From: Methanotrichaceae archaeon
GTDB taxonomy: Archaea > Halobacteriota > Methanosarcinia > Methanotrichales > Methanotrichaceae
Direction: 5' to 3'
Length of the DNA stretch: 49,523 nt
Assembly (NCBI GenBank): GCA_963754945.1
Contig: CAVWIG010000046.1
Coordinates: forward strand, 1 to 49,523
Part shown: piece after piece, positions 1-3,253 of the stretch
Layout of the letters: each line of letters begins with the position of its first letter
Numbering within the stretch: position 1 is the first letter of the stretch
Notes under the pieces: generated by a model
What the model was told of the DNA's origin: nothing
The model's database searches: none
Seen by the model: the letters and a program-made list of their open reading frames with translations, nothing else
Translations under genes and position numbers: made by a program

Positions 1-1608
1 GCAGGCGTGACCATAAGCCGCCTCTTTAACTTGCTAGGTTATCGCATTTACATGTACTACCACTACCCCTCTCTCATCCGGGGCGGGCACAACTTCTCAG
101 TGGTTCGGGCGTCAAATCACAAAATCGGCACCCATATGAGCGCTGTGGATGTTATAATCGCCCTGAACCAGGAGACTGTAGAGCTGCACCAGGGAAAGCT
201 GAAGAAAGACTCTTTCGTGATCTACGATCTAGACAAGGTTAAGATCGAGAATCTGACCCAGAGAGGATGCGGACTTCCTGTATCCAATATCCTGAAGGAG
301 GAACAGGCCCCCATGATAATGCGCAACACCTGCATCATAGGTGGGTTCTGCAAGGTGGTGGGCATCGAGTGGGACATTCTTGAAAAGGTCCTCAGAAAAC
401 ACATTCCAAAGCAGCTTGAGCTGAACTTGAAGGTGGCTAGAAAGGGATACGACGCCGCTGTAGAGTTCTCAAGGATTGAAAGATTTGATCAGCCCAGCCT
501 CCCTATCCTGACAGGCAATCAGGCGATAGGCTTGGGCCTGATCAAGGCCGGGCTTGCAGCCTATGTAGCCTATCCCATGACCCCCTCGTCCAGCCTGCTC
601 GATTTTATGGCCCGGTCTGCTGCCGACTTCGGGCTGAAGGTTGTTCATCCCGAGAGCGAAATTGCCGTCATTCTAATGGCCCAGGGCTTTGCCTATGAAG
701 GAGTCAAGGCTGCTGTAGGCACCTCGGGAGGCGGTTTCTGTCTTATGACTGAGGGTCTGAGCCTGGCAGGGATGGCAGAGATGCCCGTAGTAATAATGCT
801 CGGGCAGAGGACAGGGCCGTCTACCGGCCTACCAACCTACACAGCCCAGGCAGACCTGCACTTCGCTCTAAACGCAGGCCAGGGCGAGTTCCCCAGGTTC
901 ATCGTTTCTCCTGGAGACGCCGAGGAGGCCTATTACTGGTCAGGAGTTGCATTGAACATGGCATGGAAGTACCAGGTACCTGCATTCATACTTTCAGACA
1001 AAACAGTTTCTGAAGGGCTTTACAGCTTCGATACTTCTGTGATCGGGGACGTGAAAGAGGAGGCGCCTGTTCTCTGGGAAGGAAAGGGCGATTATAACCG
1101 CTACAAGTACACTGAAACCGGTGTCTCGCCTTTGGCCTTCCCGCCTCTTAAAAGCCAGATAGTAAAGGTTGACGGATATACCCACGACGAGCTGGGAATA
1201 ACCACCGAAGACCCAACAGCAACCGCCAAAACGAACGACAAACGGTCGCTAAAGGGATTGGCCCTGGCAAAGGAGTTGGATGGTTACGAGACAGTGAAGG
1301 TCTACGGCAACGGCAAAACAGCTCTGCTGTGCTGGGGCTCCAACAAGGGCGTGTGCACCGAAGCCGCTGATAAGTTCGGCCTGAAGGTGATCCAGGTTTT
1401 GGTCCTCTCGCCGTTCCCAGAGGCGCGGCTTCGTGATGCTCTAGCGGGCGTGGAGAGGATAATAACAGTCGAGTGCAACTCGACGGGACAATTGTCCAGG
1501 CTTGCCAGATCCTACGGTTTCGAGCCAAAGGAGCAGATACTGAAGTACGATGGGAGGCCATTCTCATTGGAAGAACTGGAAGCCGAAATCAGAAAGGTGA
1601 TAGCATGA
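1..1608 (+). CDS. korA: 2-oxoacid:ferredoxin oxidoreductase alpha subunit (gamma-alpha fusion type), 5'-partial
   Basis: Motifs IRGGHN, YPMTPSS, TSGGGF, QRTGPSTGLPT and VECN. Frame is open to the window edge; ATGA overlap with the beta subunit. Confidence 0.9.
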   Translation, partial: AGVTISRLFNLLGYRIYMYYHYPSLIRGGHNFSVVRASNHKIGTHMSAVDVIIALNQETVELHQGKLKKDSFVIYDLDKVKIENLTQRGCGLPVSNILKEEQAPMIMRNTCIIGGFCKVVGIEWDILEKVLRKHIPKQLELNLKVARKGYDAAVEFSRIERFDQPSLPILTGNQAIGLGLIKAGLAAYVAYPMTPSSSLLDFMARSAADFGLKVVHPESEIAVILMAQGFAYEGVKAAVGTSGGGFCLMTEGLSLAGMAEMPVVIMLGQRTGPSTGLPTYTAQADLHFALNAGQGEFPRFIVSPGDAEEAYYWSGVALNMAWKYQVPAFILSDKTVSEGLYSFDTSVIGDVKEEAPVLWEGKGDYNRYKYTETGVSPLAFPPLKSQIVKVDGYTHDELGITTEDPTATAKTNDKRSLKGLALAKELDGYETVKVYGNGKTALLCWGSNKGVCTEAADKFGLKVIQVLVLSPFPEARLRDALAGVERIITVECNSTGQLSRLARSYGFEPKEQILKYDGRPFSLEELEAEIRKVIA

Positions 1609-2459
1609 ACCCAAAGGATCTGGGTACCTACGCCAAGAACACCTGGTGTCCGGGGTGCGGTAACTTCTCTATTCTGAACACCATGAAAACGGTTCTGTCC
1701 TCTTTGGACGACGAAGGATTCCCCATAGACAACGTGGTCCTGGTCTCTGGCATCGGTTGTCATGGAAAGATTGTGGACTACCTTAAGTTGAACAGCTTCT
1801 ACTCAATTCATGGCAGGACGCTTCCCGTGGCAACAGCGATTAAGCTTGCCAACCCCGATCTGAAGGTGATCTGCTGCTCGGGGGATGGTGATTCCCTGGC
1901 CGAAGGGCTGGACCATCTCATGTTCGCTGCCAAGAGGAACATCGACATAACTCTCATCCTCCACGACAACCGCGTGTACGGCCTCACGACAGGTCAATAC
2001 ACGCCGACATCGCCAATGGGGTTCAAGGGCAAATCTACACCTCTGGGGACGCAGGAGTTTCCCATAAACCCTGCCGAGCTGATGCTTGTCGGCGGTGCTT
2101 CCTACATCGCCAGGGGTTACACCCACGGAATAGATCTCCTCCGGAGATTGTTCAAGGAGGCTATAACGCACAAGGGATTCTCCTTTGTGGACGTCCTGCA
2201 GGTATGTGTCACATACTTCAACATGTACGAGTCTTACAACAAACGCGTCTACGAGGTAAAGGACAACGATACCGGCAGCTTCGACGATGCCATGAAGATC
2301 ATAAGATCCTGGAACTATGATGGTGAAGAGGCCCCTATACCTCTGGGAAAGTTCTACCAGGTGGACGCGCCAAGGTTCGACGACGCCTTCCCTGGATACG
2401 AGCCTCACAAGGTAGATAGGGATGCGCAGATAAAAAAGGTCTTGGAAAATTTCATTTAG
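1605..2459 (+). CDS. korB: 2-oxoacid:ferredoxin oxidoreductase beta subunit (TPP-binding)
   Basis: WCPGCG, SGIGC, HGR, GDGD...DN and YGLTTGQ. ATG at 1605 after GGTGA overlaps the korA stop. Confidence 0.92.
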   Translation: MNPKDLGTYAKNTWCPGCGNFSILNTMKTVLSSLDDEGFPIDNVVLVSGIGCHGKIVDYLKLNSFYSIHGRTLPVATAIKLANPDLKVICCSGDGDSLAEGLDHLMFAAKRNIDITLILHDNRVYGLTTGQYTPTSPMGFKGKSTPLGTQEFPINPAELMLVGGASYIARGYTHGIDLLRRLFKEAITHKGFSFVDVLQVCVTYFNMYESYNKRVYEVKDNDTGSFDDAMKIIRSWNYDGEEAPIPLGKFYQVDAPRFDDAFPGYEPHKVDRDAQIKKVLENFI

Positions 2460-2489
2460 TTAGAAGTCAACGGCCTGATGGTGAGACGA

Positions 2490-2654
2490 ATGGATAATTA
2501 CGTATGCAAAGTCTGCGGTTATATCTACGACCCGGAGAAGGGCGATTCTACTCAGAACATAGCTCCTGGAACAGCCTTCGAGGACCTTCCAGATGACTGG
2601 CTCTGTCCGGAGTGCGGCGTGGGAAAGGACATGTTTGAGAAACAGGCGGCTTAG
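2490..2654 (+). CDS. Rubredoxin (54 aa; absent from the ORF track)
   Basis: Translated by hand: [54 protein letters not shown], with CxxCG and CPxCG knuckles. GGTGA RBS upstream. Confidence 0.95.
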
Positions 2655-2683
2655 TCGAAATATTTGTTTGGTTGACGGTGATC

Positions 2684-3253
2684 ATGATGCTCAGCGAAAA
2701 GATGACTGAAGCCCTAAATGGGCAGGCGAACAGAGAGCTGTACTCTTCTTATCTTTATCTATCCATGTCGGCCTACTTCGAGTCCCTGGGATTGAGGGGT
2801 TTTGCCAACTGGATGAGGGTCCAGGCCGGGGAGGAGCTGGTGCACGGTATGAGGATGTACGACTACGTGATCGGTGCAGGCGGAAGAGGCAGGATGCTGG
2901 CAATAGAGGCTCCGCAGTTTGTTTGGGCATCACCTGTTGAGGCCTTCCAGCATGTGTACAACCATGAGAGGGTAGTCACAGGGCTGATAAAAGCACTGGT
3001 AGGCGTTGCAATCTCCGAGAGGGACTTGGCCACAGAGAACTTTCTGCAGTGGTATTTGAACGAGCAGGTCGAGGAGGAGGAGTCCTCAGACATGGTCCTC
3101 AACAAGGCAAAGGCCGCGGGCAGCGATCCGCGTGCACTGGCGGCGGCGGACAAGGAGTTAGGTCAACGACGCTTTAAGTTCCCCAGCGGTTTCGATATGT
3201 TTCCGTATGGCCGACAGCCGGAAGGCACGACCATAGGATCGCTGAAGAAGTAA
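2684..3253 (+). CDS. ftnA: Classical non-heme ferritin with C-terminal extension
   Basis: ELYSSYLYLSM, EELVH, HERVVT and QWYLNEQVEEE ferroxidase motifs, plus an extra tail ending GTTIGSLKK. Confidence 0.92.
   Translation: MMLSEKMTEALNGQANRELYSSYLYLSMSAYFESLGLRGFANWMRVQAGEELVHGMRMYDYVIGAGGRGRMLAIEAPQFVWASPVEAFQHVYNHERVVTGLIKALVGVAISERDLATENFLQWYLNEQVEEEESSDMVLNKAKAAGSDPRALAAADKELGQRRFKFPSGFDMFPYGRQPEGTTIGSLKK

Follow-up and report, generated by a model that had tools for sequence, protein, structure and literature searches.

The window, by which we mean the whole 49,523-nucleotide stretch analysed, is contig C46 of a Methanotrichaceae assembly (G000; 87.7% complete, 54 contigs) and carries a ferritin gene on the forward strand at 2687..3253, stop codon included, which encodes 188 aa and matches PF00210. 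The enclosing open reading frame (2672-3253, +) holds ATG codons at 2684 and 2687, both in frame; since the second methionine alone is conserved among relatives, 2687 is the likely start, and ferritin residues are numbered from it. The Pfam match covers residues 9-143 (E 5.8e-37, 127.2 bits, the curated cut-off being 24.5). Furthermore, comparison with solved structures matched 153 ferritin sequences at E 1e-10 or better, the nearest chain being 1s3q_A (E 4.2e-56), and the closest solved relatives were deposited with 24 chains. The AF2 model (mean pLDDT 90.1) places helices at residues 4-33, 37-63, 83-110, 114-144 and 148-158, a four-helix bundle followed by a short fifth helix as in classical ferritin; pLDDT over the last three blocks of the chain was 79, 57 and 55, with residues 171-180 at 57. 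In an alignment of 20 ferritins that share the C-terminal tag described below, the invariant columns include E17, Y24, E49, E50, H53, E94, E126, Q127, E129 and E130, which we take to correspond to the ferroxidase centre and site C in bacterial ferritins; by reference to E. coli FtnA, E17, Y24, E50, H53, E94, Q127 and E130 are presumably the di-iron ferroxidase ligands. Judged by its sequence, the protein belongs to the classical ferritins and has kept residues of the ferroxidase type.

A rubredoxin gene (2478-2654, +; PF00301, E 2.7e-26) lies directly upstream, possibly in one transcription unit with the ferritin gene, and its product may be a redox partner of the ferritin. The gene order at 1473-3253 of the window, with a 2-oxoacid:ferredoxin oxidoreductase beta-like subunit, rubredoxin and ferritin, is kept among relatives: of 29 related loci, 28 have rubredoxin next to ferritin and 25 have the oxidoreductase subunit, with tagged and untagged ferritins alike.

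Beyond DKELGQ, the ferritin runs on as RRFKFPSGFDMFPYGRQPEGTTIGSLKK before a TAA stop, so that the tail after helix E comprises 28 residues and ends in PEGTTIGSLKK. The initial annotation had called this tail at 3170..3253, and these positions indeed encode RFKFPSGFDMFPYGRQPEGTTIGSLKK plus the TAA stop. The tail begins with a conserved C-terminal extension, RRFKFPSGFDMFPY (3167..3208, +; residues 161-174), in which F163, F165, P166 and F172 are invariant among the tagged ferritins. Its F[KRN]FP motif is common to tagged and untagged clade-B ferritins and occurs in 117 of the best 120 database homologues, and neither the 28 clade-A ferritins nor 24 ferritins from other families have the F[KRN]FP extension. 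There follow a variable linker, GRQPEG (3209..3226, +; residues 175-180), which differs in length and sequence among the 20 aligned tagged ferritins, and an encapsulin targeting peptide, TTIGSLKK (3227..3250, +; residues 181-188), for which the same alignment shows no variation at I183, G184, S185 and K187 and at least 90% conservation at L186. The peptide carries the GSL core, the published family-1 consensus being DGSLGIGSLKG, and the tag is present in 66 of the best 120 database homologues. The tail had been described as a linker of about 25 residues ending in the peptide; a variable stretch does precede the peptide, but the first 14 residues are a conserved module. Because this module also occurs in untagged relatives, RRFKFPSGFDMFPY is not simply a flexible linker, and within the tail the tag can be separated from this module, which does not depend on the shell.

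The genome contains a single match to PF04454, on contig C42 (G000:C42:52083-52814, -; E 2.5e-69, 233.9 bits), which answers the call of the initial annotation for a family-1 encapsulin elsewhere in the genome and agrees with its remark that none lies in the window. The locus (L001) is a classical family-1 operon in which an Flp gene is followed directly by the shell gene. The Flp gene, of EncFtn type (L001 2255-2617, -), encodes 120 aa ending in VNKESTIGSLKE, with KESTIGSLKE at the C-terminus, and its product is homologous to EncC 7s8t (E 3e-14) and to 5n5e. The ferritin tail and the Flp targeting peptide have the hexamer TIGSLK in common. The shell protein comprises 260 aa from MDNKY and its closest solved chain is EncA 7s4q (E 4.1e-39); EncA has 287 aa, whereas the length of the shell protein is nearer to that of the maritimacin chains (264-265 aa), so that best match and length point to different chains as guides to the T number of the shell. 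The ferritin gene is not adjacent to the shell gene, and since it is encoded on another contig (C46 as opposed to C42) from a shell whose core cargo is Flp, the ferritin can only be a secondary cargo. The earlier description of the protein as a possible orphan encapsulin cargo is thus supported as regards cargo and fails as regards orphan, the ferritin being a putative secondary cargo of a shell encoded in the same genome.

Four peat RNA libraries yielded contigs, 90-99% alike in sequence, that span positions 1400 to 2705 or so of L001, corresponding to the Flp-shell operon, and several of them bridge the Flp-shell gene junction; they represent the operon of close relatives, and DNA carry-over is possible. 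The comparison covered the shell operon, and the lack of cover outside about 1400-2705 of L001 is itself uninformative. The genome has mcrA, and close homologues of the ferritin are labelled Methanotrichaceae or Methanothrix by their sources.

To what extent the resemblance between the two peptides could arise by chance depended on the motif considered. When the final 15 residues of the 17,876 genomic ORFs of at least 60 aa were scanned for the loose motif [IVL]G[SD]L[KR], it was not enriched, with 4 occurrences against 3.9 expected; the two other ORFs that carry it were considered as cargo and rejected, as they show no likeness to the tag. The exact hexamer TIGSLK, by contrast, occurred 3 times in 5,937,578 six-frame residues of the genome. 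Two of these occurrences are the ferritin and the Flp beside the encapsulin, each one residue before the stop and each in a gene with Pfam support; the third falls within an ORF of 45 aa. By arithmetic from the hexamer rate, about 0.02 further ORFs ending in TIGSLK would be expected by chance. The loose motif alone therefore carries no signal, but the exact hexamer does. The search for other proteins with such an ending, as proposed in the initial annotation, yielded the Flp and no further C-terminally tagged protein in the genome; N-terminal tags were covered only through the hexamer count.

Subsequently, we surveyed 101 genomes of the family, 95 of which contain a ferritin and 19 a shell gene, and read every ferritin C-terminus. 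Tagged ferritins were found in 21 genomes, 17 of them with an intact shell gene, whereas only one of the 71 genomes with an untagged ferritin (G017) has an intact shell gene. The ferritin end was unreadable in three genomes (G011, G093 and G037), one of which (G011) has a shell, and six genomes had no ferritin match and no shell. Among the tagged genomes, G026 and G090 have frameshifted ferritin genes in which the tail is nevertheless intact. The tail thus co-occurs with encapsulin among orthologues, being kept where the shell gene is present and decaying where it is absent. The presence of an encapsulin in the genome and the conservation of the tail are the reverse of the two genomic outcomes that the initial annotation had named as fatal to its reading. 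Moreover, an Flp ending in (T/S)IGS(L/M)K was found at 18 of the 19 shell loci of the family. In G023 the Flp ends in TTIGSMKE and the ferritin in TTIGSMK, and the ferritin of G010, from the same genus, also ends in TTIGSMK; the same L-to-M change in the Flp and ferritin tags of one genus reads as co-variation of the two sequences.

Four genomes have a tagged ferritin without an intact shell gene (G038, G058, G060 and G096), and three of them retain a decayed Flp-encapsulin locus. Comparison of all four with the shell protein of the genome under study recovered only remnants of 41 residues in G038 and 25 residues in G096, and in both genomes the Flp gene is followed by a shell-gene remnant of 25-60 residues; in G096, the tag of the Flp itself is gone. 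In G060, the Flp lies at a contig end and has an in-frame stop before a decayed TTVGSPKK, and the shell gene would lie beyond the contig end. In the genomes with decaying operons, then, the Flp tag is lost or severed by a stop and the ferritin tag is intact. The fourth genome, G058 (99% complete), yielded neither Flp nor shell. These decaying operons, in which the Flp gene is kept, are found at L122 and L125 (G038), L123 (G096) and L124 (G060).

G017 (L045, L061) is the sole sampled genome in which an intact shell and a tagged Flp are found together with an untagged ferritin, which ends in EIFP. Its ferritin is nested in an otherwise shell-less, untagged clade, and its shell may therefore have been regained or uniquely retained. 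Two ferritin copies, both ending in a tag, were observed in G018 (L004, L052) and in G096 (L010, L083), the second copy of G096 being frameshifted. The untagged ferritins of the clade that also holds the tagged ones are truncated shortly after FPRGFEIFP(Y), and relics of the tag can be recognized in G071, where IGSLKK is out of frame past a frameshift, and in G073, as IGPLRG.

We then placed the ferritins in a tree of 90 rows, from which the tail columns were excluded and nine fragmentary or frameshifted rows were dropped, rooted at the midpoint. Two clades result, one of 28 rows without extension, tag or shell and one of 62 rows with the extension; in the latter, the tagged rows branch at the base as a paraphyletic group, with the untagged rows nested among them. 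This arrangement and the relics suggest that the tag was gained once and lost several times, a direction that depends on a midpoint root. Those four genomes that have a tag and no intact shell gene are placed near shell-bearing ones, with G060 beside G044 and with G096 and G058 beside G070, which fits recent loss of the shell. At least four tag changes and at least six shell changes are required by the tree, and the independent pairs number one on well-supported branches and four on all branches. As the association is clustered by phylogeny and the events are few, it admits no sound statistical test of correlated evolution; the association between tag and shell is real but rests on few events.

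In the host phylum, PF04454 matches were found in 52 of 401 genomes. We sampled the 27 genomes outside the family with the strongest matches, which belong to four families and 24 of which have a ferritin. By a crude filter, an ORF ending in a targeting peptide lies upstream of the shell gene in 22 of the 27. Neither the extension nor the tag was found in any of the 24 ferritins of these shell-bearing genomes, which end shortly past helix E, mostly in LDHELGKRE. Within the sample examined, tagged ferritins are confined to the family.

Complex prediction was performed for the shell protein with ferritin residues 149-188, together with three controls. The score was 0.70 against 0.00 for the best control, a predicted value to which memory of solved encapsulin-peptide complexes may contribute; of 157 solved complexes, 116 attained this mark, as did 2 of 215 mismatched pairs. 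At least 36% of the contacts were common to the prediction runs and the partner pLDDT was at least 46, with the shell's own fold uncertain. The predicted interface joins ferritin residues 180-188 to shell residues 22, 26, 29-30, 33, 35-41, 44, 222 and 225-228. Given that peptide-bound encapsulin structures exist, such as 3DKT (PMC7925596), the score shows likeness to solved structures rather than binding.

Collectively, we consider it probable, at roughly 0.78, that the ferritin is a secondary, non-operon cargo of the family-1 encapsulin of its genome. The peptide would bind a luminal pocket of the shell protomer during assembly, lined in the model by shell residues 22-44 and 222-228; binding in the shell lumen would enclose the ferritin together with EncFtn, as we propose. 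The peptide would have been gained a single time, in the common ancestor of the ferritins that have the RRFKFP extension, and would have been lost by truncation or frameshift after loss of the shell. Alternatively, the tail could serve the ferritin itself, through stability, pore gating or iron entry and release, functions of the kind reported for the long C-terminus of M. tuberculosis BfrB, or could serve another partner, with no encapsulation in vivo. We regard this as unlikely. It would account for the four genomes with an intact tag and no intact shell, one of which lacks Flp as well, and for G017, which has a shell and an untagged ferritin. In addition, RRFKFPxGFxIFPY is kept irrespective of the shell, which implies some shell-independent role of the C-terminus, and truncation of the BfrB tail lowered the ferroxidase rate 3.5-fold (PMC3072985). 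Such a role is harder to reconcile with the last eight residues, which share the core of the Flp peptide and follow its L-to-M change, and with the absence of the tag, in some cases leaving frameshifted relics, from 70 of the 75 genomes that lack a shell and whose ferritin end could be read; the module that is kept and the tag are separable, and only residues 180-188 form the predicted interface. That the resemblance is a meaningless chance match is hardly credible: the loose motif is indeed not enriched (4 against 3.9 expected), but the exact hexamer, seen 3 times in 5.94 M residues, is common to the operon cargo, and the tag is conserved in 21 surveyed genomes and in 66 of the best 120 homologues, co-varies with the Flp tag and decays upon loss of the shell.

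If the ferritin is indeed a secondary cargo, the form in which it enters the shell has to be considered. That an intact 24-mer is loaded, giving a cage in a cage, seems to us to stand slightly short of even odds. The tag might instead be reachable only before the 24-mer closes, in which case dimers or partial assemblies would be loaded, providing extra ferroxidase and no nested cage; given loading, we would put this somewhat below an even chance. In canonical octahedral ferritins, helix E ends with its C-terminus facing the cavity, so that the tag may be out of reach on an assembled 24-mer, which favours loading before closure. On the other side stand the approximately 22 residues between the end of helix E and the tag, a spacer that is by estimate long enough to leave a shell about 2 nm thick and also to span the gap from a centred 12-nm cage to the wall of a lumen of about 20 nm. 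Furthermore, the closest solved ferritin, 1s3q, is one that we take to be the open-pore tetrahedral 24-mer of Archaeoglobus fulgidus, and if such an assembly is shared here, the tails could exit through the pores. At 260 aa, the shell protein is similar in length to the maritimacin chains (264-265 aa) and the lumen may accordingly be small, which again favours partial assemblies, as does the absence of cages among known EncFtn cargos (PMC8346489, PMC11202242); conversely, PMC11202242 reports cage-like bodies seen by negative stain in a T=1 shell for Mt-BfrB.

In its most complete form, the secondary-cargo reading would have an intact 24-subunit cage tethered by its tails inside the shell alongside EncFtn, as a two-layer iron store whose tag was gained once and shed upon each loss of the shell. 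We offer this full picture tentatively, with the odds leaning against it. If true, it would be a natural two-layer store in a methanogen that keeps ferric mineral out of reach of low-potential reductants; speculatively, the benefit would be to protect that mineral against the strongly reducing cytoplasm and, when oxygen enters, against Fenton chemistry. Iron handling at very low redox potential in the acetoclastic methanogens of peat and sediments is little studied, and the present findings place an encapsulin-based iron system in these organisms. The logic of enclosing a ferritin within an encapsulin is called unclear in two reviews (PMC8346489, PMC11202242), and the idea, though proposed, is still doubted. 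The family offers a testable system for this debated cage-inside-a-cage iron storage, with two or three genes to co-express and with natural 'knock-outs' in the form of untagged ferritins and of shell-less genomes with decaying tags.

Tagged secondary cargo encoded away from the operon is known from T. maritima and from M. xanthus, where EncA is accompanied by EncB, EncC and EncD (Giessen and Silver, 10.1101/085266; Andreas and Giessen, PMC8346489). The present system shares with such family-1 systems a PF04454 HK97-type shell gene behind an EncFtn/Flp core cargo, a C-terminal GSL-core peptide on a flexible linker and an extra tagged protein encoded elsewhere; it differs in that the secondary cargo is a cage-type classical ferritin and the host belongs to a methanogen family. 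One supplementary file of PMC8346489 lists Methanoregulaceae and no Methanothrix, Methanosaeta or Methanotrich entry. The literature found to mention both encapsulin and methanogen included none on a tagged ferritin by title or abstract, and the supplements of 10.1101/085266 may list archaeal secondary cargos.

The closest solved relatives of the ferritin are 1s3q and 3kx9 (E 4.2e-56, aligned over residues 3-168) and 2jd6 (E 1.6e-48, aligned over residues 2-168); 3kx9 is presumably likewise the Archaeoglobus fulgidus ferritin, and 2jd6 is, we assume, that of Pyrococcus furiosus. The alignment includes the start of the extension, LRQFTPPA there corresponding to QRRFKFPS here. In contrast to the ferritin studied here, these chains end at 173-174 residues, without linker or targeting peptide.

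Other members of the ferritin superfamily have conserved C-terminal targeting peptides, and some are encoded off the shell locus and put forward as secondary cargo, as PMC8346489 and 10.1101/2025.09.13.676036 describe for bacterioferritin-like and double-ferritin (DFLP) cargos. Those proteins are two-domain, whereas the ferritin here is a single-domain classical one, and DFLPs, which can be secondary cargo, form dimers and no nanocages according to the latter source. Bfr-type cargos and a 'shell-within-a-shell' arrangement are also discussed in PMC8346489.

The nearest precedent is BfrB of M. tuberculosis, a proposed secondary cargo of the Cfp29 encapsulin, and 172 BfrB-type secondary cargos have been predicted by a consensus of their own rather than by the core-cargo consensus (both from 10.1101/085266); a 'cage in a cage' for BfrB is discussed in PMC11202242 and PMC8346489. 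The BfrB tail is described in PMC3072985 as ordered at the 3-fold junction of the ferritin, where it packs onto the ferritin and affects ferroxidase rate and stability. Both proteins are 24-mer-type ferritins whose genes lie off the shell operon and whose C-terminal extensions have been suggested to direct them to a family-1 shell. The core cargo of the BfrB system is a DyP peroxidase, whereas here it is an EncFtn with the same tag core as the ferritin, and the host here is an archaeon. Ferritin cargo as such has thus already been proposed for BfrB in Actinobacteria; the new element is an archaeal ferritin of the classical kind that bears a canonical core-cargo tag, in a methanogen family. Published ferritin-cargo cases rest either on BfrB, whose tail is atypical, or on bacterioferritin-like cargos that are uncharacterised (PMC8346489, PMC11202242), and the present ferritin, whose tag core equals that of the core cargo, offers a cleaner case.
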